Below are positions 3,450 through 44,007 of a stretch of DNA of 44,007 nt, one piece after another (within the stretch, counting starts at the first letter, position 1; the number at the start of each line of letters is the position of its first letter). Source of the DNA: a phage. The position numbers and the translations under genes were made by a program. The notes beneath the pieces were generated by a model. That model did no database searches. It had not been told where the DNA came from and saw only the letters and a program-made list of their open reading frames with translations. Where the stretch lies: the sequence record PX907401.1; one strand, 5' to 3'.

Positions 3450-3623
3450 TTATTCAGTCTCAGACGAGGGGGGCCGTTGACCCCCGTCTAGTCTGAAAGA
3501 CTGGGGTTTGTCCCGCCTGTCCCGCTCCTCTGGAAGCCGCGCCATCCGGGGCGGGACGGGGGTGCTGTCCCGCTTTGTCCCGCCCCTTGTTTGTCCCGCT
3601 TTCTGTCCCGCTTACTTTATGCA
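3450..3623. repeat. Dispersed repeat element, copy A (about 174 bp; second copy at 31279-31452)
   Basis: Near-identical 5' 75 bp and 3' 48 bp shared with copy B; contains six direct TGTCCCGC heptamers plus one inverted, and hairpin-capable segments. Confidence 0.85.
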
Positions 3624-3696
3624 GTTTTATTGCATAACTATTCATTACAGCTACACGACACGGCAACCAATACGACCAGTTAAAAACGCCCAAAAT

Positions 3697-3836
3697 GGCA
3701 ACCAATGCGCGCAAAATTTAACCTTTTAGCGATATGGGAATTCCCATATCGGCAACCAATGCGCGCAAAATTTAACCTTTTAGCGATATGGGAATTCCCA
3801 TATTGGCAACCAATGCGCGCAAAATTTAATCTTTTA
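3697..3836. repeat. Tandem direct repeat, 54-bp unit x about 2.6, each unit with a perfect 18-bp palindrome ATATGGGAATTCCCATAT and a GCAACCAAT motif
   Basis: Units at 3697-3750, 3751-3804 and partial 3805-3836; palindromes at 3732-3749 and 3786-3803; overlaps the primase stop codon (3826-3828). Confidence 0.9.
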
Positions 3837-6090
3837 AATCATCATCGGTCGCTGAAAGCGTGATGGGTATGTTCGTTTTGATGACGATATTAGACGACCC
3901 ATAGATGGCCCCGGTGTGTGGGTCTGTGTAAAACCCAAGCACGCCGCGCTCGACCATATCGTCTATTGCCTTCGTCGATGTGCCACCTTTTGCCAATCCC
4001 GCCTGGCGGACGATTGCCGATTTACTGAATCCGGTATGGTCCGGGTTATCTTCCATCAGTTTTTCCAGTGCCGCATAAAGCACTTTCTCTTTTTCGTTGC
4101 GCGGTCCGGCGGCATTCTCTTCCTTAACTGCGGCTTTGCCAGCGGCCTTTGCTTGCTCAATGGCGAACGGTGCCAGGGCGACCGGTACGAGATAAAGAGT
4201 CTCGTCGCGTGGCGTGGATGCAATTGGCTTGACGTCCCAACCGGCAACCACGTCGCCGAAGTCAGGCCCGGTGCTGGTGGACTGGTGTGATTCGAACGCT
4301 TCGGACTTGCGGAGATCCACCTTAACCTTGCACTTGAGCAGGACGAAGCCGCGCGGCGCTTGCTTGATGCCGTTACGTGCCTTTTCGTGATACAGGTTCA
4401 ATTGGCCCGGCTGATTGTCGTCCGGTTGCTCCAGGAAGAACGCAGAATCGACAGCGCCATGCAGCGCGCCGGACCCACGGGGAGATCTGCTGCCGTTTGC
4501 ACCCTTCGCCGGGTGGTGGATGACGCCCGCACTGCCGCCTGTATTTTCCGCAATGGCCTTCAGCGCTTTGACCACTTCACCCATATCGCTGGCGTTGTTC
4601 TCGTCGAACGGTTTTGCATTGGCGGACCGCAGCGCAACAGTCTGGTTGAGTGAGTCGAACGCCACCAGGCCAACCGGTTCGCCGTTAGCGGTGCGGTTGA
4701 TGAAGCTGATAACTTCGCGCAAGCCGGACTTGTTGGTGATATCCCAGCCGCGTGACTGCAGATCGATAATGTGCAGCTTGTCGAGGTCGTGCTCATATTT
4801 AATCTGCAATGCTTCTTTGCGCTGGTTAGAGGCTTCACCACCTTCCGCATCGAAATAGAAGCAATGAGACTGGACGACCTTCGCACCGCCGAACGGAATA
4901 CCGGCGGCAACCGCGCCCATCTGCCCCAGCACATAGAAAGACTTACCAATGTTCGACTCGCCCGCCATATACCAGGTCGATTTGAAGTTAATCAACCCCT
5001 CGATAATCGGGTCGTGCTTACTGAACAGCGCAACCGGCTCGTTATCCAGATCCGCATCAGTACACACGCCGTACTCGTCGCCGTCTCCGACCGCATCAAC
5101 GATATGTTCATAGCACGATTCCACTTCCTCATCGTCCAGTCCCGGAAGGATGGCGGCGATTTGCTTACGTGACATGTTGTGCGGCTCGACGTTCAGGTGG
5201 TCCGGGATCCCGATAAGACGTAGCGCCAGGTGCTGGTGTCTGTTCAGTTCCGAGCAACACTCGTTGCCGGTGTGCATACACTTGAAACGGATCTCGCCAT
5301 CCTTAACCATGATAGCGGTTGACCCTTCGCCACTATGCAGATGTTCGTTCGGGCATGGCACTTCATAACCCCGACCGGACGACAGCGGTTCGAATCCTGC
5401 CTGGAAGCACCAGTCCAGAATGCCGTCCGCCACGCCGTCATCGCCCTGGGTTAGTTCGCGGCGTACTTTCTCTTTTTCCACTCCCAGCTTATCAGCCAGG
5501 CGAAGCAGACGACGGACGCGGGCACGCTTGCCGTAGTGGCACTTAATAACGGACTGCTGGTGTGGCAGGTACATCAGGCGGTTTGTATCTTTCGTGCAAT
5601 CGTCGAAGTCCACATCTGACAGACCCAGTTGGTGTAATAGTGCATACTGGACGCGGCCCAGGTCTTCAGCCGGTACAGGCTTGTCAGTGAGCACCAGGAA
5701 ACGGGCGCAACGCGTGCCGCCCTTCAGCGGGTGGCGGTCGCCGGTGGTGGTGTGAAATACGTGTTCCAGACCCGAGTCGATGAACGCCTTACGGCAGCGG
5801 CGCAGGGTGCGGGTGTCGGTGCGGTCAATATCAAAGAACAGGATCGAGCGGTCCACCGCACTGGTCTTACGACGCAATCCGTCACTGGTATACGCCACGA
5901 TGCCATCGGCCTTACGCTTGCGGCGCGCATACTCGGCTTTATCTTCCGTCTTGTTGATATGCACCGAGGAGATTTCTTTCGCATCTTTGATAAATTCGAA
6001 AAACTCATCGGTCGTCATCTGGAAGTTTTCCGCCCTGGCTTTTTCGCCTTTTTTAGCGGGTTTTGTTACAGCGAATTTAATCAAGCTCAT
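3826..6090 (-). CDS. Bifunctional DNA primase/helicase (primase-like N-terminal domain, P-loop ATPase C-terminal domain)
   Basis: 754 aa; FFDIDRTD acidic motif in the N-terminal domain; Walker A GESNIGKS and Walker B-like VAFDSL in the C-terminal domain. Confidence 0.8.
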   Translation of the reverse strand: MSLIKFAVTKPAKKGEKARAENFQMTTDEFFEFIKDAKEISSVHINKTEDKAEYARRKRKADGIVAYTSDGLRRKTSAVDRSILFFDIDRTDTRTLRRCRKAFIDSGLEHVFHTTTGDRHPLKGGTRCARFLVLTDKPVPAEDLGRVQYALLHQLGLSDVDFDDCTKDTNRLMYLPHQQSVIKCHYGKRARVRRLLRLADKLGVEKEKVRRELTQGDDGVADGILDWCFQAGFEPLSSGRGYEVPCPNEHLHSGEGSTAIMVKDGEIRFKCMHTGNECCSELNRHQHLALRLIGIPDHLNVEPHNMSRKQIAAILPGLDDEEVESCYEHIVDAVGDGDEYGVCTDADLDNEPVALFSKHDPIIEGLINFKSTWYMAGESNIGKSFYVLGQMGAVAAGIPFGGAKVVQSHCFYFDAEGGEASNQRKEALQIKYEHDLDKLHIIDLQSRGWDITNKSGLREVISFINRTANGEPVGLVAFDSLNQTVALRSANAKPFDENNASDMGEVVKALKAIAENTGGSAGVIHHPAKGANGSRSPRGSGALHGAVDSAFFLEQPDDNQPGQLNLYHEKARNGIKQAPRGFVLLKCKVKVDLRKSEAFESHQSTSTGPDFGDVVAGWDVKPIASTPRDETLYLVPVALAPFAIEQAKAAGKAAVKEENAAGPRNEKEKVLYAALEKLMEDNPDHTGFSKSAIVRQAGLAKGGTSTKAIDDMVERGVLGFYTDPHTGAIYGSSNIVIKTNIPITLSATDDDLKD

Positions 6091-6100
6091 TGTCGTGGCC

Positions 6101-6430
6101 TTACTTAGAAGTTTTATTATTGCGTACCCAGGAGCGCACTGTGCTCTGATTAATTCCGGTCAACTCGGCAATCATCGCCCAAGATTTGCCCTCGGCGCGC
6201 AAACGGATAACCTGCTTTTTGTATTCTTCCATTTCTTCATTGTGTTTTTGCAGCTTGCTTGCTGCTGTACCGTTGAGCAATTCCAGCCTGGAGCGTAATT
6301 CTTTTTCGACACTGCGCAGTCGTTCGATTTCAAATAACACCACCCCCACGGCATCGGTATAAGCCCATGACCGGCTTGTCTCACTGCAAACAGTCTTCGT
6401 TAACATTTCGATTGCGTCGTTTACATTCAT
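6101..6430 (-). CDS. Small DNA-binding protein with C-terminal helix-turn-helix (putative transcriptional regulator)
   Basis: 109 aa; coiled-coil-like N-terminus; C-terminal KSWAMIAELTGINQSTVRSWVRN resembles an HTH; GAGGG 8 nt upstream of the ATG. Confidence 0.6.
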   Translation of the reverse strand: MNVNDAIEMLTKTVCSETSRSWAYTDAVGVVLFEIERLRSVEKELRSRLELLNGTAASKLQKHNEEMEEYKKQVIRLRAEGKSWAMIAELTGINQSTVRSWVRNNKTSK

Positions 6431-6560
6431 TGCTCTGCCCTCAGTTGGTTAATGACCAACGAAACTACACCCAAAACTGCACGGTGTCAAATCCTTTTGA
6501 TATTGAAACGGGCGCGCACGCGTGTAATAATAATTCTCGTCTCATTGTCTCTTATTGGTT

Positions 6561-6593
6561 AGCGCCGTCGCATTTTGCCTCGGCGCTTTTTTT
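6561..6593 (+). terminator. Terminator-like hairpin plus T-run immediately upstream of the early promoter
   Basis: AGCGCCG-loop-CGGCGCT followed by TTTTTTTG. Confidence 0.4.
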
Positions 6594-6604
6594 GAAATTA
6601 GTTG

Positions 6605-6634
6605 TTGACACCCATCCTGCAACCAATCTATCAT
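6605..6634 (+). promoter_or_regulatory. Early promoter, sigma70-like (-35 TTGACA, 18-bp spacer, -10 TATCAT)
   Basis: Perfect TTGACA at 6605-6610; GCAACCAAT motif lies within the spacer; about 60 nt upstream of the first plus-strand gene; a second perfect TTGACA on the minus strand at 6485-6490 faces the HTH gene. Confidence 0.55.
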
Positions 6635-6694
6635 TCACTCCGTAGACAGGGCATACCGCCCTGACACCTAAACTTAACCAATCGGAGATACACC

Positions 6695-7126
6695 ATGTTT
6701 GAACAAATCGTAAACCTGATTACTCGCGGCGTAGTAGCGCTGGAAACCATCGCTAAGTATTATGAAACCGTTGGCGCTGCCGTTGGTAAGCAGGAAGACA
6801 AGAAGCCGTCTAAGGCCAAAAAAGAAGTCGTAGAAGATGACGACGATGAAGAAGCCGAAGACGAAAAACCGGCTAAAGCTAAAAAAGCACCGGCGAAAGG
6901 CAAAGGGAAGAAAGATGCCGATCCGCTGGCAGAGATGCGCGACGAGATCAAGCAGTACGCCGCGATTATCGCCGGTGGCGATGACGACGATGCTAACGAC
7001 GAATTTGACGACCTGCTGGAAGCGTTCGAGATCAAATCAATCGCTAAGCTGGAAGACGACGACGTCGAAGACTTCCACAAAGATTTAAAAGAAATCGTCG
7101 AGACTTATTTCGAACTGGAAGACTAA
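6695..7126 (+). CDS. Highly acidic early protein (143 aa) with lysine-rich insert; DNA-mimic or anti-restriction candidate
   Basis: GGAGA RBS 6 nt upstream; runs of D/E (EDDDDEEAEDE, GGDDDDANDEFDD, EDDDVEDF) flanking KAKKAPAKGKGKK. Confidence 0.75.
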   Translation: MFEQIVNLITRGVVALETIAKYYETVGAAVGKQEDKKPSKAKKEVVEDDDDEEAEDEKPAKAKKAPAKGKGKKDADPLAEMRDEIKQYAAIIAGGDDDDANDEFDDLLEAFEIKSIAKLEDDDVEDFHKDLKEIVETYFELED

Positions 7127-7264: not shown

Positions 7265-7291
7265 GGCCCGCATATTAGCGGGCCTCTTTTT
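7265..7291 (+). terminator. Rho-independent terminator
   Basis: GGCCCGC-ATATTA-GCGGGCC followed by TCTTTTT. Confidence 0.65.
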
Positions 7292-7304
7292 AGAGGACGA
7301 GACA

Positions 7305-7556
7305 ATGGCACGATTCACGCTAATCGAGGCGGTGGATTCCCGCGACCAGCGCCCGTACTATTGGCTATTCGAACGCATCGGCAGCTTTCAATCCCGCGTT
7401 GCCGTAATAGATAAACGCCGTAACACGCCCGCGCAAATTAAGCGCACCACCTTTACTAACCCCGACTTTTATATTTGGGCGGACTCCAATCTGGAATATG
7501 TTCGCTTTGCGGTTGCATCCGAAGCAAGAACGATTGACCGCTGGGAGACGAAATAA
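7305..7556 (+). CDS. Hypothetical protein (83 aa)
   Basis: ORF with purine-rich stretch upstream. Confidence 0.55.
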   Translation: MARFTLIEAVDSRDQRPYYWLFERIGSFQSRVAVIDKRRNTPAQIKRTTFTNPDFYIWADSNLEYVRFAVASEARTIDRWETK

Positions 7557-9175: not shown

Positions 9176-9410
9176 AGTATTCGCAATCTTATTGATGTTT
9201 TTGCTCGGCGCGCTGGGCTTTATCCTGCATTGTGTGCAAGGCGTGTTAATGGTCGCCTGGATGATTCGACATCCTACCCGCTGGCTGGATGACGGCTATA
9301 ACGAAGCTGCCGTCGATTGGGTGGAAAAGAACATCAACCGCCCGCCGTTAAGCTGGATCGAGAACGCGACCAACTACGTTACCAGAAATCTTTTTAATGA
9401 AAATGCTTGA
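9168..9410 (+). CDS. Small membrane protein (80 aa)
   Basis: N-terminal hydrophobic segment FAILLMFLLGALGFILHCVQGVLMVAWMI. Confidence 0.5.
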   Translation: MNKVFAILLMFLLGALGFILHCVQGVLMVAWMIRHPTRWLDDGYNEAAVDWVEKNINRPPLSWIENATNYVTRNLFNENA

Positions 9411-9500
9411 CCGCTTAGGCGCAACCAAGTAGATTATCAACCAAGCCGGACGGGGTGGCTCACAATAACCCCGATACATGTGAAAATGAGGAATTGGAAA

Positions 9501-10281: not shown

Positions 10282-10452
10282 ATGCGTATTAAAGCCAGCG
10301 AAGTAAAAGTCGGAATGCAAGTATGGTCCAAGCTACTGGGGGAATATTTCACAGTTGCCGAGATTCGCAACAACGGCGAAGAAATCGCCCTGTCCGACGG
10401 CATCTTCTCCATGATCGGCAGCAATGACGCCGTAGTGAGGATAAAGCAATGA
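10282..10452 (+). CDS. Small hypothetical protein (56 aa), translationally coupled to the polymerase (ATGA overlap)
   Basis: MRIKASEVKVGMQVWSKLLGEYFTVAEIRNNGEEIALSDGIFSMIGSNDAVVRIKQ; its stop overlaps the polymerase ATG at 10449. Confidence 0.5.
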   Translation: MRIKASEVKVGMQVWSKLLGEYFTVAEIRNNGEEIALSDGIFSMIGSNDAVVRIKQ

Positions 10453-13400
10453 AAGACTTCGAACGCCTGTTTCTCGACACCGAGACATTTAGCGGGGTGG
10501 ACCTGAAGAAAGTTGGGGCGTACGCCTACGCAGAGCACCCAACCACCGAGATTATGATTTGCACATACGCCATCGACGAGGGCCGCGTGCAGACATGGGA
10601 TTGCACTGAATCCCCCACAATGCCGCGTGAACTGCGCAAAGCGATCCGCCATGTATCCCGCAAGAAAGCAAAAATCGTGATGGCTAACGGCCTCCTGTTT
10701 GACCGCCTGGTTATTCGCGAGAAGTGGGGTATTGACCTGCCGGTAAGCCAGATCGAAGACACCATGATTATGGCCTTTCGCCACGCGCTGCCGGGTAGCC
10801 TCGATATGCAGTGCCAGGTGCTGGGCGTTGACGCAGAGCACGCGAAGGATAAGGCAGGCAAGGCGCTGATTAAACGATTCTGTAAGCCTACCCCTAAGAC
10901 CTACAAAATACGCCGCTACACTCGCGAGACTCACCCGGAAGAATGGGCCAAATTTCTGCGCTATGCCGCGCTGGATATTATCGCAATGCGTGAAGTCTAC
11001 TGGCGCATACCGGACTGGGGTAATACTCCGAAGGAAGATGAAATCCTACTTATCGACCAGTTGATCAACGACCGCGGCTTCTATGTGGACGTTGACCTGG
11101 CGAACGCCGCGATCAAAGCGGTGCAGGCGCATAAGGAAGAATTGAAGGAAGAAGCCTGGGAGCGATTTGGCGGTAAGCTGACCGGCAATGACTTCCTGCC
11201 AATCCTGCGTGATATCGCCCCGGCGTTCACGATCCACAACGCGCAGAAATCCACACTTAACGACCTACTGGAAGACCCGGACTTCCCGGACGAGGGCAAA
11301 GCGCTTATCGAAATGCGCCTCGGTGCGTCATCAACGGCATCTACTAAATACAATCCGCTTGTCAATGGCCTGTCCGCCGATGGTCGCCGCCGTGGTTGTC
11401 TTCAGTATGGTGGGGCAAAGCGCACGCTACGCTGGGCCGGTAAAGGCTTTCAACCTCAAAACCTGGCGCGTGGCGAGTACAGCGACGACCACGAAGGGAA
11501 GATTAAACGCCGCGAGGGTGAAAGCGACGTCTCGTTTTGGGTCCGGTCGCACATGCTCACCAACGGCATCAACTCCCTGTTACGCGGGACCGCACACTGG
11601 GCGTATGACATATCGAAGCTAACGGCCTCGACCGTTCGCGGGTGCATTATTCCGGCGAAGGGCAAGAAGTTTGTCGTAGCGGACTACTCCAACGTGGAAG
11701 GGCGTGGACTTGCCTGGATCGCTGGCGAGAAAACAGCGTTAATGGTCTTTAAGGCCGGTCGCGATATCTATTGCGAGACTGCCGGTAAGATGTTCGGCCT
11801 GGACCCGGACTACATTAAAGCCAACCGCAAGGACTTACGCCAGATCGGTAAGGCTTGCTTGCACCGCCATACCCAAGTATTGACCAATGGCGGGTTCAAG
11901 GATATTATGGCCGTAACATCAACGGATAAAGTATGGAACGGCGAAAAATGGGTGAGTACAAAAGGCGCGCACCTTATGGGGTGGAAACCAGTGATAGACG
12001 TGGACGGGGTCTTGATGACAGAAGACCACAAAATCTTGACGCATTCATGGAAGGAGGCAAGGCAACTCGTTTCAGACAGGTGCACGATGGCCCGCGCCCT
12101 GGCGAGAGGTATGGACGCCTGGTTATCCTGCGCGAATTACCAAAACGACAGGGGCACAGACAACTGCTGGCTCAATGTGATTGCGGAGCGATGCCAGGAC
12201 GCGTCGGGTATGACAACGTCCGAAGGGGTAAAACATCCCAATGCAACCTCTGCGCAATTGAAGCGACAAAGCGGTATCGTAAACAGTATTTTTGCTACGA
12301 TGACGCAATGCCAGACGATGCGCACAGAACGCGGCTGCTCAACCGGCTGTCCGCGGCAATATCACGAACGACAAACCCCCGCGCCAAAGGGTATAAAAAC
12401 TATGGCGGTCGTGGGATTGCCGTATGTGACGAATGGAAAAGAGATAAAAGGTCGTTTCTTCGCTACGTTCAAACGCTGGACGGCTGGGATAATCCAGACT
12501 TCGAAATGGACCGGGTCGATACAGACGGCAACTATGAGCCTGGAAACCTTCGGTTTGTCAGCCGTTCGGAAAACTGCCGTAACCGGCGCAGCGTGCCCGA
12601 GCTTCAGCGAAAGTGCGATGAAGCCCTTACCCGCATTGCTGAACTGGAACGGGAAGTTAACCTATTGCGAGCCGGTTTACGACCTGATTGATGTGGAAGA
12701 CGGAAACCGGTTCCTTATTGCGTCTAAGTCTGGTTTTCTGGTGGCGCATAACTGCGAGCTAGGCTTGGGCTATGGTGGCGGCGTGGCAGCGTTCTTGCAG
12801 TTCGCTAAAAACCTGGGCCTCGACCTGTACACTATGGCGGACGTGATGAAAGGCACGTTCCCGGATCACATTTGGGCGGCGGCGAAACGCGGCTATGAGT
12901 ACGCCCGCATTAACGAAGCGAAACGCCCACCGAAGCCTGGCAAGAAGGACGAGCGACCGACTTACATACTGCCGAAAAACGTATGGCTGACGTGCGACGC
13001 GATCAAACGTATGTGGCGAGAGGCCCACCCGAAGACGGTTGCCTTTTGGGCCGAGCTTGAGGACGCGGTGTTGTGTGCAATCCGCAATCCGGGCAAAGCA
13101 TACTGGGCTGGCGCGAACGTTCGCCCGGATGGCAAGAAAGCGCTCAAGATTGTTCGCACGAAGGCGAAGCACGACCCAACCTTCGACGAGGAGCGCGACG
13201 ACCCGGACGCTGCGGGGTGGTGGTTGAAAATTGAGTTGCCGTCGGGGCGCATCATGAGCTACCCCGGCATCGCGCTGTCTGTCACGACAGAGATTGACGA
13301 GGACACCGGCAAGAAGCGCACCAGCACACGCATTAAATATCAGGGCGAGAATCAGACGACGCGCCAGTGGGGGTTCCAGTACACCTACGGCGGCAAACTG

Positions 13401-13637
13401 ACGGAGAACATCGTACAGGCGTTGTGCCGTGATATTCTCGCATGGTCCATGCCGGGCGTCGAAGCCGCGGGGTATGAAATAGTCCTGTCAGTACACGATG
13501 AACTGATCACCGAAGTGCCCGACACAGACGACTACACGACAGAGGAGCTTTGCGCGCTGATGTGCGACCTGCCTGTTTGGGCGAAAGGCTTCCCACTTGC
13601 CGCCGAAGGTGATTGTATGTATCGCTACCGCAAGTAG
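10449..13637 (+). CDS. Family-A (Pol I-like) DNA polymerase with 3'-5' exonuclease domain, interrupted in motif B by an intein
   Basis: 1062-codon uninterrupted ORF; Exo I LFLDTETFS; motif A VVADYSNVEGRG; motif B RQIGKA / CELGLGYGG split by a 299-codon insert; motif C VHDE. Confidence 0.9.
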   Translation: MKDFERLFLDTETFSGVDLKKVGAYAYAEHPTTEIMICTYAIDEGRVQTWDCTESPTMPRELRKAIRHVSRKKAKIVMANGLLFDRLVIREKWGIDLPVSQIEDTMIMAFRHALPGSLDMQCQVLGVDAEHAKDKAGKALIKRFCKPTPKTYKIRRYTRETHPEEWAKFLRYAALDIIAMREVYWRIPDWGNTPKEDEILLIDQLINDRGFYVDVDLANAAIKAVQAHKEELKEEAWERFGGKLTGNDFLPILRDIAPAFTIHNAQKSTLNDLLEDPDFPDEGKALIEMRLGASSTASTKYNPLVNGLSADGRRRGCLQYGGAKRTLRWAGKGFQPQNLARGEYSDDHEGKIKRREGESDVSFWVRSHMLTNGINSLLRGTAHWAYDISKLTASTVRGCIIPAKGKKFVVADYSNVEGRGLAWIAGEKTALMVFKAGRDIYCETAGKMFGLDPDYIKANRKDLRQIGKACLHRHTQVLTNGGFKDIMAVTSTDKVWNGEKWVSTKGAHLMGWKPVIDVDGVLMTEDHKILTHSWKEARQLVSDRCTMARALARGMDAWLSCANYQNDRGTDNCWLNVIAERCQDASGMTTSEGVKHPNATSAQLKRQSGIVNSIFATMTQCQTMRTERGCSTGCPRQYHERQTPAPKGIKTMAVVGLPYVTNGKEIKGRFFATFKRWTAGIIQTSKWTGSIQTATMSLETFGLSAVRKTAVTGAACPSFSESAMKPLPALLNWNGKLTYCEPVYDLIDVEDGNRFLIASKSGFLVAHNCELGLGYGGGVAAFLQFAKNLGLDLYTMADVMKGTFPDHIWAAAKRGYEYARINEAKRPPKPGKKDERPTYILPKNVWLTCDAIKRMWREAHPKTVAFWAELEDAVLCAIRNPGKAYWAGANVRPDGKKALKIVRTKAKHDPTFDEERDDPDAAGWWLKIELPSGRIMSYPGIALSVTTEIDEDTGKKRTSTRIKYQGENQTTRQWGFQYTYGGKLTENIVQALCRDILAWSMPGVEAAGYEIVLSVHDELITEVPDTDDYTTEELCALMCDLPVWAKGFPLAAEGDCMYRYRK
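11856..12752 (+). other. Intein (protein-splicing element) within DNA polymerase motif B
   Basis: Starts with Cys (CLHRHTQVLTNGGFKDI), TxxH-like block (EDHKILTHSW), ends VYDLIDVEDGNRFLIASKSGFLVAHN followed by +1 Cys; flanks reconstitute the RxxxKxxxFGxxYG motif. Confidence 0.75.
11933..12691 (+). CDS. HNH-type (HNH_3/AP2-like) homing-endonuclease-like ORF in the -1 frame, entirely inside the intein
   Basis: 252-codon ORF; GERYGRLVIL...CDCG...QCNLC (Zn-ribbon-like) and GYKNYGGRGIAVCDEW...DRVDTDGNYEPGNLRFVSRSENCRNRR; the overlapping polymerase frame is also open throughout. Confidence 0.55.
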   Translation: MERRKMGEYKRRAPYGVETSDRRGRGLDDRRPQNLDAFMEGGKATRFRQVHDGPRPGERYGRLVILRELPKRQGHRQLLAQCDCGAMPGRVGYDNVRRGKTSQCNLCAIEATKRYRKQYFCYDDAMPDDAHRTRLLNRLSAAISRTTNPRAKGYKNYGGRGIAVCDEWKRDKRSFLRYVQTLDGWDNPDFEMDRVDTDGNYEPGNLRFVSRSENCRNRRSVPELQRKCDEALTRIAELEREVNLLRAGLRPD

Positions 13638-16864: not shown

Positions 16865-16898
16865 ATTGGTTGCATAAGCATATTGGTTGCATTATATT
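16865..16898 (+). promoter_or_regulatory. Promoter with tandem ATTGGTTGCAT motifs (-35 TTGCAT, 17-bp spacer, -10 TATATT)
   Basis: ATTGGTTGCATaagcatATTGGTTGCATTATATT read directly. Confidence 0.5.
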
Positions 16899-18086: not shown

Positions 18087-18553
18087 AACTACTGATTTGT
18101 GATCTTGATGGCGTTATTAATGGTTCGAGTGATGCACGCGCCGACCTGGTGCCGGGTATAAAAACCAAATCAACATTTTGGGCAAAGTGGCACAAAGCGC
18201 ATGCACGCGAAGACCTGAACATGGATATGCTGCCGCTGTTGCGCATGTACAAAGAGCAAGGCTTCGAGATCGCGTATCTGACAAACCGGCAGCGCGAATG
18301 TTGGGACACGACCGCCGAACAACTGGAGGTCTTCCCCGCAGGCCGGTTGTTTATGCGCCACATGCTGGACGACACCCCGCCGCCAGAGTTTAAGGCGTGC
18401 GCCGTGTTCAAAATGGTCTGCTATGCGGACGTATCGGAACTGGTCGTCATTGAAGACTGTCCGAAGAACATCGCGGCAATTCGTCGGGCGTGCAGCGATC
18501 TGGTCCCGAAAATTTATGCGATAAACGTTGAAAAATTCACTTGCAACCAATAG
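18083..18553 (+). CDS. HAD-superfamily phosphatase-like protein
   Basis: 156 aa; N-terminal LICDLDGVI (HAD motif I DxDG). Confidence 0.55.
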   Translation: MKLLICDLDGVINGSSDARADLVPGIKTKSTFWAKWHKAHAREDLNMDMLPLLRMYKEQGFEIAYLTNRQRECWDTTAEQLEVFPAGRLFMRHMLDDTPPPEFKACAVFKMVCYADVSELVVIEDCPKNIAAIRRACSDLVPKIYAINVEKFTCNQ

Positions 18554-31278: not shown

Positions 31279-31452
31279 TTATTCAGTCTCAGACGAGGGG
31301 GGCCGTTGACCCCCGTCTAGTCTGAAAGACTGGGCTTTGTCCCGCTTGTCCCGATCGGCTGAAAACCGCGGCAGCACTGGCGGGGATGGGGTGCTGTCCC
31401 GCTTTGTCCCGCCCCCTGTTTGTCCCGCTTTCTGTCCCGTTTGGTTTATGCA
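31279..31452. repeat. Dispersed repeat element, copy B (see 3450-3623)
   Basis: Same orientation as copy A; lies in the intergenic gap between the GT stop (31512) and the tape-measure start (31215). Confidence 0.85.
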
Positions 31453-31511
31453 CGAAATTCGAATAGGTATGCACATTTCATGGGTGGGACAAAACGGGAC
31501 GTCCCGCTTCA

Positions 31512-37066: not shown

Positions 37067-37096
37067 TTGCAATCCGCGTATTGGTTGCACTATATT
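37067..37096 (+). promoter_or_regulatory. Promoter for the clamp-like gene (-35 TTGCAA, 18-bp spacer, -10 TATATT) with tandem ATTGGTTGCAC motifs
   Basis: TTGCAAtccgcgtATTGGTTGCACTATATTGGTTGCAC read directly. Confidence 0.5.
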
Positions 37097-42961: not shown

Positions 42962-44007
42962 TCATTTCAACATTTCCGGGCTAATGGTTAAGCGCGCTAC
43001 TTCGCCGTAGTTGGCGCTATAGGTGATGACGTTTGCGCTGCGACCTGACATCCAACCGCCACGACTGGCGTAGGCGTCTTTCGCTGCGAGCGTCCTGTGC
43101 TGTTCAACAATCATGTTGCGGGATTCAACAATCTTCTGGTGGTGCAAATGGCCTACGTGCGCGTAGCTGTATTCGCTCGACCCGAAAGCCTGTCTGAATT
43201 TAGCGATCATAACCTGCTCGATAACATCGAATCGCGCTTTGTGCCCGTGGTGGAAAAATAGTGTGGTCTTACCGTGCTGCACCATTTTGTAGACGTCCGG
43301 GGACGTATCCACATCGACGCGCGGCTCGTTCTCGTACAGCGTGTTGAACATCTCAGCAAGCCAAATCATGCCCGACTCGTCATGATTCCCCTGGACGATT
43401 AGCAGTTTGACTTTGTGGTGTTTTTGCAGCGCCAGTTCGACGACGTTGCGCACCATGCGAATCATGTAGCGGACCAACTTCTGGTATCGGGTGTCGGCGT
43501 CCAGTATGTGACCACTTGCCGGAGTGACAGCATCGAGGCTATCAAAGTGGGCCATATCACCGAGGATATTAATTACGGCAGTGCCTGCGTCCGGGGCGCG
43601 GGCGAAGGCTTCGACAAACCAGCGGTAAAACAGGTCTTCGGCAATCGCCATATCCCAGTCTTCGCCAGTCTCCTCGCCCCAGGCCAACATGCCCAGGTGG
43701 AAGTCTGACACAGTGTACAGGTTGAGTAGGTCGAGCGCCTGGATCGGGACTGGCGGGGCGCTTACTGGTGCTGCCGGTGTGATTTCGCTGTTCATGCCCT
43801 CGACAACAGCGCGCATGGCTTCAAGCTGGCGCTCCTTGTCCTGCTCAGTGATAACCCACGACATGACCTCTTCGCCATTTCCGCGCACCAGGGCCGATAC
43901 GCGCTTAACCCCAAACCCATCGGCAACGCGCTTGCGTATTACGGCATCGTTGCCGTGTCCAATGCCTTTTTTCGACAGGCGGGCTTTCCGCATATAAACA
44001 TTGCGTA
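42962..44007 (-). CDS. Calcineurin-like metallophosphoesterase, truncated by the window edge (N-terminal HTH segment is at 1-168)
   Basis: Motifs SDFHLG, GDMAHFD, GNHDE, GHLHH read in the translation; the ORF runs into the terminal repeat. Confidence 0.75.
   Translation of the reverse strand, partial: RNVYMRKARLSKKGIGHGNDAVIRKRVADGFGVKRVSALVRGNGEEVMSWVITEQDKERQLEAMRAVVEGMNSEITPAAPVSAPPVPIQALDLLNLYTVSDFHLGMLAWGEETGEDWDMAIAEDLFYRWFVEAFARAPDAGTAVINILGDMAHFDSLDAVTPASGHILDADTRYQKLVRYMIRMVRNVVELALQKHHKVKLLIVQGNHDESGMIWLAEMFNTLYENEPRVDVDTSPDVYKMVQHGKTTLFFHHGHKARFDVIEQVMIAKFRQAFGSSEYSYAHVGHLHHQKIVESRNMIVEQHRTLAAKDAYASRGGWMSGRSANVITYSANYGEVARLTISPEMLK
43938..44007. repeat. Terminal direct repeat, identical to 1-70
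   Basis: Same 70-nt string as the window start. Confidence 0.9.

Follow-up and report, generated by a model that had tools for sequence, protein, structure and literature searches.

How are the two gene blocks that diverge from a 264-bp gap (positions 6431-6694) in the genome of a virulent Dhillonvirus controlled, and does the gap hold more than a pair of back-to-back promoters? The window analysed here is the whole 44,007-nt stretch of sequence record PX907401.1, a nearly complete Dhillonvirus (HK578/EP23-like) genome whose host is E. coli; 155 Dhillonvirus records match it, and phage Zumzum supplied the gene map. These phages of E. coli are common; they are represented in the BASEL collection, are used for studies of defence systems and are candidates for phage therapy. 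Existing records annotate the gap as empty or as a hypothetical ORF, the 264-bp region has no copy among 5,426 E. coli genomes, and a literature search for Dhillonvirus promoters, small RNAs, transcriptomes (RNA-seq, TSS, Northern), binding and genetics returned nothing relevant. A first-pass annotation had proposed a divergent control region, with an HTH/primase operon leading leftward and an early block leading rightward. This proposal is supported, the rightward genes being those of DNA metabolism, and all of the sequence features on which it drew were located in the gap and are conserved across 47 related loci. Sequence comparison indicates that the gap is a real control hub with two divergent arms and three predicted sigma-70-type promoters, which lie within about 190 bp.

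The rightward promoter, P_R, consists of TTGACA (6605-6610), an 18-nt spacer and TATCAT (6629-6634) on the plus strand. It scores 11/12, is the best sigma-70 match within the first 20 kb and is conserved in every lineage, which bears out the original call. The TTGACA that had been noted on the minus strand at 6485-6490 is also present and was read from the sequence as part of P_L (TTGACA 6490..6485, 17 nt, TAGTTT 6467..6462; 9/12), whose hexamers are invariant and whose spacer varies in relatives; the equivalent in other lineages is TTGCAC or TTGACA, 17 nt and TGtATATT. The P_L -10 is weak, and P_L is absent from a generic promoter scan because this hexamer matches at only three of six positions, below the scan's -10 cut-off. 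The earlier view that there are only two promoters did not hold, since a third, P2, had been overlooked at 6503-6531 on the plus strand. P2 comprises TTGAAA, 17 nt and AATAAT with an extended -10 TG at 6523-6524 (10/12 plus TG) and is the second-best sigma-70 match in 20 kb; positions 6500-6531 are invariant among close relatives, and in other lineages the slot is filled by TTGCGC-17/18-TATTAT, TAAGAT or TATAAT.

Promoter prediction, which had been suggested as a check on the region, succeeded for P_R as the best match, but the generic scan as a whole was not above chance (three promoters found versus 2.1 expected in the region, and 13 versus 15.4 in 20 kb). For this reason, the argument for function rests on conservation. 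Hexamers of the -35/-10 type at 16-18-nt spacing are present on both strands, and they are more conserved in relatives than their surroundings, being invariant in an alignment of 18 close relatives in which spacers and flanks vary. The three-promoter layout recurs in at least five sequence-divergent lineages. TTGACA itself occurs 10 times in the entire window, counting both strands, and two of these copies fall in the gap. From these features we infer transcription from all three promoters, such that P_L (6490..6462) would transcribe the HTH regulator and primase-helicase genes leftward, P_R (6605-6634) would drive rightward transcription of a first gene, for an acidic protein, and of the genes for DNA metabolism, and the rightward transcript of P2, which lies between them, would stop at a hairpin at 6561-6593.

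The leftward operon opens with the gene for a 109-aa regulator (6101-6430, minus strand), predicted to form a long helix and a C-terminal HTH, and continues with the 754-aa primase-helicase gene (3826-6090, minus strand; Pfam AAA_25), whose homologue is annotated in relatives as a replicative helicase-primase. The HTH stop codon (6103..6101) is followed after 10 nt by the primase-helicase ATG (6090..6088), and the HTH gene precedes the replication gene in all lineages. Residues 65-105 of the 109-aa protein match Pfam HTH_23, HTH_28 and Sigma70_r4_2, and the AlphaFold model places a helix at 26-79 and the HTH at 84-107 (pLDDT 84); a Foldseek search with this model returned only generic HTH matches of 34-44 residues. 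The family is found in Dhillonvirus-like phages only (24 clusters), with residues 47-106 nearly invariant and residues 1-45 hypervariable. In the rightward arm, a small leader hairpin (CAGGGC-auacc-GCCCUG, 6647-6663, plus strand) was read from the sequence near the 5' end of the predicted P_R transcript, at a spot where relatives have a 3-bp hairpin or an insert of ~150 nt. Within 6674-6697 (plus strand), TTAACCAAT is followed by SD GGAG (6684-6687) and by the ATG (6695) of the first rightward gene, which encodes an acidic protein of 143 aa that belongs to PHROG 3127 (function not assigned in PHROG).

What would P2 produce? The promoter stands just upstream of the hairpin and T-run that had been described at 6561-6593, and this structure exists as described. 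On the plus strand, AGCGCCG (6561-6567) pairs with CGGCGCT (6581-6587), an inner 3-bp helix forms within the loop, and a T7 run follows (6587-6593); a generic scan missed the hairpin because its loop limit is 8. Folding and lineage comparison identify the structure as an intrinsic terminator. In addition to the 7-bp GC stem, the inner helix and U7, the ~56-nt unit is stabler than shuffled sequences (-16.7 kcal/mol, z = -3.63), and the stem sequence differs by lineage with its pairing kept (GCGCCG/CGGCGC, TCCCCG/CGGGGA, CCCCAG/CTGGGG, CCCGCAAAA/TTTTGCGGG and GCCTGGCC/GGTCAGGC), which amounts to at least five unrelated stem sequences, each of them self-complementary in the equivalent place. In the 40 loci compared, the T-run measures 7-13 nt. 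The first-pass annotation had suggested that the hairpin, taken by itself, could insulate the early promoter or attenuate transcription; this reading is not supported because the conserved P2 precedes it and the two together form a self-contained transcription unit.

The hairpin most likely ends an unannotated regulatory RNA of ~56 nt that begins at P2. The predicted RNA (6538-6593, plus strand) consists of a 23-nt unstructured 5' tail, the terminator hairpin and U7. The seven further representatives (from lineages B-E and L015) are all predicted to adopt the same fold, and the tail is largely open in all eight representatives by both MFE and centroid structures, with at most short weak helices in those other than the window. 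The unit is taken to be non-coding because the length polymorphism of the T-run is incompatible with coding. With its own promoter, its own terminator and no coding capacity, the predicted unit is built like a small RNA that would act in trans by base pairing. The marks of an attenuator were not found, in that no alternative anti-terminator fold was predicted and no conserved ORF or leader peptide was detected. Rfam 15 gave no match at the gathering threshold over the whole window; the best sub-threshold matches were ncS54 (15-18 bits versus 43) and STnc480 (19-20 bits versus 72), and searches at gathering and permissive thresholds that also covered the long leader of a relative yielded nothing. 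No equivalent RNA was found in distant phages with a homologous primase-helicase (vB_SenTO17, 43% identity; Bas76, 34%). The predicted ~56-nt RNA was found neither in Rfam nor in the literature.

A candidate target lies within the leftward operon. The seed CUCAUUGUC (6541-6549, plus strand), at the 5' end of the predicted small RNA, is the exact reverse complement over 9 nt of GACAAUGAG (6094..6086, minus strand), the proposed target around the primase-helicase start codon. We hypothesize that the single-stranded 5' end of the RNA would pair with positions -4 to +5 of this start codon and block ribosome binding, such that less primase-helicase would be made and the upstream HTH cistron would be unaffected; the control would presumably be repressive. 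The mRNA surroundings of the target are less structured than shuffled controls (z = +2.06). The most conserved part of the transcript is its 5' 9-12 nt, the first complementary nucleotide of the predicted transcript always falls between +1 and +3, and the seed core CATTG is invariant and lies 9-11 nt past the -10 in every lineage. The complementarity between seed and start region is retained throughout the lineages.

Comparison of 16 distinct seed/start-region combinations from 47 loci shows that 140 of 144 core cells pair, and changes on both sides are seen in four pairs of the helix; the -3 pair occurs as A-U, G.U and G-C. The seed/start pair of lineage E (GUUCAUUGCU/AGCAAUGAAC) represents a compensatory change, locus L049 has UCUCAUUGCUU/AAGCAAUGAGA, and the helix of L045 comprises 12 perfect bp. 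The covariation score is 0.159 versus 0.117 +/- 0.015 for shuffled combinations, a value reached by 4 of 500 shuffles, and duplex energies are better than those of shuffles in 7/7 representative sequences (p 0.0005-0.045). Slid registers give only 31-54% pairing, a control that is inflated because the helix was defined from the same sequences. One-sided transitions are of three kinds (mRNA-strand A to G at -3, -1 and +4), all of which give G.U. An uncompensated A-to-C mismatch lies inside the helix in 6 of the 47 loci (the L010 group and L012), and CHD5UKE2 (L044) keeps only 7 bp in register. When G.U is allowed, in-register helices of at least 9 bp occur at 3% of all ATGs. In a genome-wide scan by duplex energy, many chance duplexes rich in G.U outscored the primase start region, so that it did not come out on top; for this reason, the energy ranking is not counted as evidence. 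Altogether, the comparison points with modest strength to a seed that is single-stranded, complementary to the translation start and covarying with it. The covariation draws on few independent lineages, and the 9-bp seed is short.

A second complementary stretch, UCUCUUAUUGGUUA (6548-6561, plus strand), faces the RBS of the acidic gene at 6675-6688. The two form a 14-nt inverted repeat with 86% complementarity, and in the window the duplex has an energy of -15.8 kcal/mol (p about 0.075). This pairing reaches p <= 0.001 only in lineages C and D and is not significant in lineage B and L015, and cognate pairs score only slightly better than non-cognate ones (7.8 versus 6.3); the RBS of the acidic gene is a weak candidate for a secondary target. 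The start region of the gene at 7305 was considered as a third target and rejected: it has 10 bp in register but is not conserved outside lineage A.

Control of the hub would also act on DNA. The first-pass annotation had pointed to clustered ATTGGTT and AACCAA motifs, and the cluster is real (four TTGGTT/AACCAA hexamers in 264 bp versus 0.2 expected; Poisson 6e-5), but the element is actually the 9-mer GCAACCAAT, which is genome-wide rather than only local. Sixteen copies occur across the genome, 12 of them within the 7.1% of the DNA that is non-coding (p = 2e-11), and the motif is kept at orthologous spots in all lineages. One operator-like copy lies inside the P_R spacer (6619-6627, plus strand) and ends 1 nt before the -10; it occupies the same position in every lineage and is tandemly duplicated in four (B, D, E and L049). 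At P_L, the operator-like palindrome TTGGTtaatgACCAA (6445-6459), made up of half-sites of the 9-mer, spans the predicted leftward start, just upstream of the SD of the HTH gene, and is conserved in all lineage-A loci although the neighbouring SD region varies; other lineages carry a full GCAACCAAT in its place, and L044 is without a site at P_L. A promoter-like site at 9407-9435 has GCAACCAAT in the equal slot, ending 0-1 nt before the -10. At 18543 the motif is in the spacer only if the promoter is read manually as TTGAAA-17-TAGGTT, since the promoter scan gives TTGCAA-18-TATAGT and puts the motif over the -35. A repeated specific motif that overlaps core promoter elements, here at P_R, at 9407 and at the P_L start, is consistent with an operator. 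Searching the literature for the motif itself found only primers in unrelated papers, and an IMG/VR pattern scan for tandem operators found no further contig beyond one already compared. Immediately past the end of the primase-helicase gene, copies of the motif make up an iteron-like array of 54 bp.

A phage DNA-binding protein would recognise GCAACCAAT, and the neighbouring HTH protein is the most likely candidate; its recognition half is invariant wherever the motif is invariant. Once accumulated, the binder would shut down P_R together with its own operon at P_L, repression being the direction that we propose. The region may likewise be the hub for the early switch that the first-pass annotation had envisaged. 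As a genus-wide operator-like motif that stands at nearly every regulatory junction, GCAACCAAT is useful for annotating and engineering Dhillonviruses.

Could the RNA evidence be accounted for more simply? One explanation is that only two divergent promoters matter, that the hairpin and T-run only insulate or attenuate P_R by halting rightward transcription that is stray or comes from P2, that the P2 transcript is functionless and that its complementarity is coincidental. The terminator lies 11 nt upstream of the P_R -35 and would therefore keep P2 transcription from occluding P_R, the energy-based search for targets lacks specificity, and in-register helices at ATGs are not rare with G.U allowed. 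However, this explanation does not tell why a strong invariant promoter stands immediately upstream of the terminator, why the extreme 5' end is the best conserved part of the transcript, or why compensatory changes track the primase start in lineages E, L049 and L015/L045; attenuation is further opposed by the tail that stays largely open in the eight representatives and by the failure to predict an anti-terminator fold, and we regard the explanation as unlikely. A different account places the signal in DNA, with the repeated CTCATTGTC (6086-6094 and 6541-6549, same strand) and GCAACCAAT serving as protein sites, for example in replication-origin function or helicase loading, and with the two CTCATTGTC copies co-evolving. 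These copies do form a direct repeat on DNA, and the iteron-like array is compatible with an origin-binding protein, but the first copy coincides exactly with a start codon and the second exactly with the 5' end of a unit made up of promoter and terminator, the identity ends at the predicted transcript start, and the one-sided transitions all allow G.U. Moreover, we know of no protein that needs a site of the CTCATTGTC type, and DNA sites seem a quite improbable cause. That the region instead codes for a small protein is suggested by a 48-aa CDS annotated here in Zumzum, by an ORF annotated in some records and by a mechanical 92-aa ORF in the window (6367-6645). We consider this very improbable, since the ORF frame is not conserved, crossing as it does the T-run of variable length; the ORF is also only 62% identical to the window by tblastn and lacks an SD, and conservation follows the promoter hexamers and the hairpin rather than codons.

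The sign of control by the GCAACCAAT binder may also be questioned, since the protein could switch the hub on, either by activating middle and late transcription or by conferring promoter specificity on it. At several sites that lack a -35, hexamers resembling a -10 directly follow the motif, as in GCAACCAATATAGT at 37095 (minus strand) and GCAACCAATATGCT at 16883 (minus strand); the motif lies upstream of late operons (283, 37081/37095 and 21077), and the HTH is similar both to sigma region 4 and to activator domains of the LuxR type. Yet P_R and 9407 already have good -35/-10 elements with spacers of 17-18 nt that the motif fills, the spacer placement at 18543 holds only under the manual reading, the P_L site is at or just past the start point, and TAnnnT follows only 5 of about 20 sites. 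A motif within a promoter spacer is in the typical position for a repressor. Activation is possible but rather doubtful. The motif was also considered as a -35 or promoter-specificity element in its own right and rejected, as this works at only about 5 of 20 sites.

On balance, we think it probable, from conservation and complementarity, that the replication operon is controlled by an HTH autorepressor together with a small RNA acting in trans and that the gap is the central hub of this virulent Dhillonvirus. The replication operon would then be the meeting point of two negative controls, an arrangement like that of plasmid copy control. A bolder proposal can be offered only tentatively and as a whole: that a virulent siphophage exerts plasmid-like, gene-dosage-sensing copy control over its own replication, through an autorepressor and a constitutive trans-acting RNA that masks the start codon of the primase-helicase gene; that the protein binding GCAACCAAT serves throughout the genus as the global switch from early to late expression; that the second, lineage-specific stretch of the RNA, being directed against the rightward early leader and RBS, would therefore couple both arms of the hub; and that, because the seed and start region covary between lineages, the RNA could be a determinant of incompatibility or interference among co-infecting Dhillonviruses. 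A conserved small RNA directed against the replicative primase-helicase would be a rare case of a virulent phage whose genome replication is riboregulated, a design hitherto tied to plasmids and temperate phages.

Several known systems share parts of this design. In phage phi29, the small DNA-binding protein p4 sets the early/late programme from several sites overlapping promoters in a compact divergent region; these sites are inverted repeats that overlap the -35 or lie upstream of it, and p4 acts jointly with p6. The window is likewise the genome of a virulent phage with divergent promoters packed closely together, but its element is a 9-mer present in single, tandem and inverted copies across the genome; to our knowledge, the phi29 control region has no RNA component. 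Hfq-type host RNAs such as RybB and OmrA/B have their own promoter, a single-stranded seed at the 5' end, a Rho-independent terminator and a duplex of 8-12 bp over the SD or AUG. The predicted RNA resembles them in its promoter, extreme 5' seed, poly-U terminator and short duplex, and differs in being phage-encoded with a phage gene as its main predicted target; no homology to host RNAs was found in 5,426 E. coli genomes, and the best Rfam matches were far below threshold. Among phage RNAs, P22 sar, lambda OOP and P1/P7 c4 are short, end in intrinsic terminators and block ribosome binding on phage mRNA, and c4 acts via short boxes of complementarity whose sequences covary between P1 and P7. 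The predicted RNA is likewise short and terminator-ended, without an Rfam match; sar, OOP and c4 come from temperate phages, where they act on genes for immunity or antirepressors; the first two overlap their targets, and we know of none of the three that targets a replication primase-helicase.

A parallel in design is also offered by plasmids. In pMV158, the small repressor gene copG is co-transcribed with the downstream replication-initiator gene repB and autoregulates the operon, and RNAII, which inhibits repB translation, combines a single-stranded 5' tail of 17 nt with a single hairpin and a 3' end rich in U (PMC4485353, PMC5717011). The predicted RNA of the window has a 23-nt tail that carries the complementarity, one hairpin and U7. 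RNAII and CopA of R1 are cis-antisense RNAs, made from the opposite strand and fully complementary to their targets, whereas the window's RNA (6538-6593, plus strand) does not overlap its target (6086-6094, minus strand) and would rely on a seed of only 9-12 nt; its gene lies 447 nt from the target, upstream of the operon's promoter. The setting also differs, in that the window is a virulent phage genome, the regulated protein would be a primase-helicase and there is no sequence relationship. The likeness to pMV158 copG-repB/RNAII, and to CopB/CopA of R1, lies in the arrangement itself, namely a repressor gene and a replication gene in one operon together with a tiny RNA that would inhibit translation.

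The 1.6 kb around the intergenic region at 6431-6694 is matched at 90-97% identity by 155 phage records, nearly all from the genus Dhillonvirus (HK578, EP23, SSL-2009a, JL1 type) with Escherichia or Shigella hosts. Projection of the annotated phage Zumzum genome onto the window supplied the gene map and identified the window as a nearly complete, circularly permuted Dhillonvirus genome. The permutation is also apparent from one exonuclease gene that runs off the right end (42962-44005) and resumes at the left end (1-258). Left of the region, the minus strand encodes a 109-aa HTH protein (6101-6430), a 754-aa primase-helicase (3826-6090) and, farther left on the Zumzum map, the lysis, packaging and structural proteins. 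To its right, the plus strand encodes a 143-aa acidic protein (6695-7126) as well as exonuclease, ssDNA-binding protein, DNA polymerase, helicase, methylases, ligase and PNK. Because leftward genes lie on one side and rightward genes on the other, 6431-6694 is the sole divergent junction of the two genome arms. Within the rightward arm, a strong intrinsic terminator at 7265-7290 (seven G-C pairs and a T-run; labelled as such in phage PTXU06) follows the first two genes only, a placement that suggests an immediate-early unit, with the exonuclease and polymerase genes reached by read-through or antitermination. The DNA polymerase ORF (10449-13637) encodes 1062 aa in the window versus 763 aa in Zumzum, its match to Zumzum extends over ~900 extra nt, and Pfam recovers only a partial family-A polymerase domain; the longer form may reflect an insertion or fusion.

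Direct reading located every element that the first-pass annotation had named at 6431-6694. The rightward promoter P_R (TTGACA-18-TATCAT, 6605-6634) scores 11/12 and is the top match within 20 kb, and the minus-strand TTGACA of the leftward promoter P_L (6490..6485) is followed 17 nt on by TAGTTT (6467..6462). TTGACA occurs 10 times in the entire window, twice inside this region. TTGGTT/AACCAA hexamers are clustered (four versus 0.2 expected), and the hairpin AGCGCCG/CGGCGCT (6561-6567/6581-6587) precedes a T7 run (6587-6593), with a folding energy of -16.7 kcal/mol (z = -3.6). Since promoter-like matches are in total no commoner than in shuffled sequence, function is argued here from conservation. 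What, then, does the hairpin terminate? An invariant block at 6500-6531 contains a third promoter, P2 (TTGAAA-17-AATAAT with an extended -10 TG, 6503-6531), which scores 10/12, ranks second among matches in 20 kb and is oriented toward the hairpin. No plus-strand gene upstream could use the terminator at 6561-6593, which leaves P2 as its only sensible client. The hairpin is accordingly read as the predicted 3' end of a short transcription unit and not as the stand-alone insulator or attenuator suggested earlier; neither an anti-terminator fold nor a leader ORF is present there. The earlier interpretation holds in part, for the divergent hub, whose layout is kept across the lineages of relatives, and for the motif cluster; it overlooked the third promoter and for that reason misread the hairpin.

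P2 and the terminator bound a predicted RNA of ~56 nt (6538-6593) that folds, in 8/8 representative sequences, into a mostly open 5' tail and a canonical intrinsic terminator. The stem sequence is lineage-specific, and every version is self-complementary (GCGCCG/CGGCGC, TCCCCG/CGGGGA, CCCCAG/CTGGGG, CCTCG/CGGGG, CCCGCAAAA/TTTTGCGGG and GCCTGGCC/GGTCAGGC). Across 40 loci, T-run length ranges between 7 and 13 nt, which rules out the ORFs annotated across it in some records. No Rfam family matched the small RNA, no copy of its region was present in 5,426 E. coli genomes, and the element is absent from more distant phages with a related primase-helicase.

Conservation was assessed in 47 related loci gathered from IMG/VR, metagenomes, Logan/ENA assemblies and GenBank. 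Among close relatives, both P_L hexamers, the block 6500-6531 and the P_R hexamers are invariant, in contrast to the spacers, the SD region and 6532-6539. The HTH gene, which is 59-80% identical overall and has an N-terminus that varies between lineages, distinguished no fewer than five more lineages (B-E and L049) in which the intergenic sequence is mostly different. The order of parts in these lineages is identical: the HTH start and SD; a GCAACCAAT site; a leftward promoter (TTGCAC or TTGACA, 17 nt, TGtATATT); a rightward promoter (TTGCGC-17/18-TATTAT, TAAGAT or TATAAT); a short segment starting ..CTCATTGTC..; a hairpin with T9-13; TTGAC(G/A) with one or two GCAACCAA copies in the spacer before the -10; and a short leader preceding the acidic gene. 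Most relatives also carry a near-invariant insert of ~150 nt in the P_R 5' leader (L001 2345-2532 and 19 other loci) at a point equivalent to ~6646-6665 of the window, which lacks the insert and has a small hairpin instead. The insert has a consensus fold of -42 kcal/mol, one clear covarying stem (CCAGG/CCUGG, CCCGG/CCGGG, CCUGG/CCAGG) and no matching Rfam family; either a structured leader RNA or a small mobile element could account for it.

Conservation within the small RNA transcript is highest at the very 5' end. The window's seed, CUCAUUGUC (6541-6549), matches exactly the reverse complement of GACAAUGAG, a sequence covering positions -4 to +5 relative to the primase-helicase start codon (6094..6086, minus strand), 447 nt away and on the divergent mRNA. 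Tabulation of every locus with both elements gave 16 distinct combinations. The window forms 9 perfect bp, and most of its own lineage A and of lineages C and D have the same seed with a single A-to-G substitution in the mRNA (9 bp including one G.U). Lineage B pairs GCUCAUUGUC with GACAAUGAGC over 10 bp; lineage E (L025) pairs GUUCAUUGCU with AGCAAUGAAC, also over 10 bp, and in three of these pairs both partners differ from those of B. L049 forms 11 bp (UCUCAUUGCUU with AAGCAAUGAGA), and L045 and L015 share UCUCAUUGUCUC and GAGACAAUGAGA and form 12 bp, including one G.U in L015.

Across the 16 combinations, 140/144 cells of the 9-bp core are paired, and with all 12 pairs counted the true register is 80.7% paired versus 31-54% in slid registers, the helix having been defined from the same sequences as were used for these counts. 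Both-sided changes occur in four pairs of the helix, and the -3 pair is seen as A-U, G.U and G-C. The covariation score, which draws on few independent lineages, is 0.159 versus 0.117 ± 0.015 for shuffled data and was reached by 4/500 shuffles. Duplex energy is better than that of dinucleotide shuffles in 7/7 representative sequences (p 0.0005-0.045), and complementarity begins at +1 to +3 of the predicted transcript in all cases, never upstream of it. Structure in the target mRNA segment is lower than in 199/200 shuffles, consistent with a start site that stands open and could be blocked rather than one that needs opening. Energy alone is not specific, as many G.U-rich chance duplexes in a genome-wide scan were stronger; in-register helices of at least 9 bp occur at 3% of all ATGs with G.U allowed and at ~0.4% with at most one G.U. 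In six loci (the L010 group and L012), a mismatch within the helix goes uncompensated. Phage CHD5UKE2, which has a different, 149-aa regulator, forms only 7 bp in register, and a 9-nt complement of its small RNA 5' end lies 8 nt farther upstream.

Does the small RNA have other targets? Its terminator-proximal part shows complementarity to the acidic gene's leader or RBS: 13/14 positions in the window (6548-6561 opposite 6675-6688, one G.U), a perfect 13-mer against leader +1..+13 plus 10 bp over the SD in lineage C, and 12/14 positions in lineage D. Statistical support for this pairing is confined to C and D (p ≤ 0.001); the window gives a borderline value (p about 0.075), B falls short of significance, and cognate pairs have a slight advantage over non-cognate ones, so that the acidic-gene leader is a possible but unproven second target. 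The start region of an 83-aa gene at 7305 (GAGACAAUGG, 7296-7311) is complementary to 6542-6551 in the same register (10 bp with one G.U); it was rejected as a conserved target, since the pairing is found in lineage A and not kept elsewhere.

The clustered ATTGGTT/AACCAA motif noted earlier is real, and in full it is a 9-mer, GCAACCAAT, distributed genome-wide. AACCAAT occurs 19 times in the window versus 5.3 expected, and 12/16 copies of GCAACCAAT fall within the 7.1% that is non-coding (binomial p = 2e-11); of the other four copies, three lie at gene boundaries. One copy (6619-6627) occupies the P_R spacer and ends 1 nt ahead of the -10, a half-site palindrome TTGGTtaatgACCAA (6445-6459) covers the predicted P_L start, and degenerate copies lie at 6554-6563 and 6674-6682. 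The motif is kept at orthologous positions in all lineages, several of which duplicate it in the P_R spacer. The copy at 9421 fills the same spacer slot within TTGACC-17-TAGATT, the palindrome at 18543/18555 (GCAACCAAtaggTTGGTTGC at 18543) allows two promoter readings, and motif pairs flank -10-like hexamers ahead of late operons (37081/37095, 16866/16883, 283). Overall, the further copies (283, 9421/9439, 13924/13936, 16866/16883, 18543/18555, 21077, 37081/37095) are often paired 11-17 bp apart or palindromic and mark almost all other intergenic junctions, including those ahead of packaging, head and tail-fibre genes.

The HTH protein, the sole recognisable DNA-binding protein near the region, is the likeliest candidate to bind GCAACCAAT. 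Its model combines a long helix with a C-terminal tri-helical HTH (pLDDT 84), and its structural matches are generic (LuxR/GerE and transposase-type); the record names "transposase", "resolvase" and "nuclease inhibitor gamma" are unsupported beyond a generic HTH. Across lineages, residues 1-45 are hypervariable and residues 47-106, recognition helix included, are almost invariant, in apparent agreement with an invariant DNA site. Motif placement inside the spacer and at +1 argues for repression; an activator role is also possible, given the sites beside late promoters that lack a -35. Dense repeats also occur at 3565-3836, directly past the primase-helicase stop codon. They comprise 12-nt CTGTCCCGCTTT repeats (3565-3613) and a 54-bp tandem array (3697-3836; 2.6 copies, 97% identical) in which each unit contains GCAACCAAT and an 18-bp perfect palindrome, ATATGGGAATTCCCATAT; a GTCCCGC-repeat block has a second, inverted copy near 31440-31500. 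Motif clusters follow the primase-helicase gene at the equivalent place in all lineages, and 3565-3836 is a candidate replication origin or iteron region.

On balance, we favor a model in which a genus-specific, trans-acting small RNA and an operator system together control the replication operon. Host RNA polymerase would fire all three promoters, with P_L expressing the regulator and primase-helicase, P_R the early DNA-metabolism genes and P2 the small RNA. Rising regulator levels would shut P_R and the regulator's own promoter; as genome copies increase, so would copies of P2, and the small RNA would titrate the primase-helicase start codon. This model is directly testable. Its logic is shared with plasmid copy control. 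The pMV158 genes copG and repB share a transcript, CopG represses its own operon, and RNAII, built from a 5' tail of 17 nt, a single hairpin and a U-rich terminus, blocks repB translation via that tail; in R1, CopB and CopA play equivalent roles (PMC4485353, PMC5717011). pMV158 RNAII and R1 CopA are defined by a cis-antisense arrangement, whereas the phage RNA gene lies 447 nt from its proposed target and matches it by the seed only. The proposed phage circuit would thus be functionally alike without being a family member, and is most likely an unannotated and undescribed variant of a known regulatory design.
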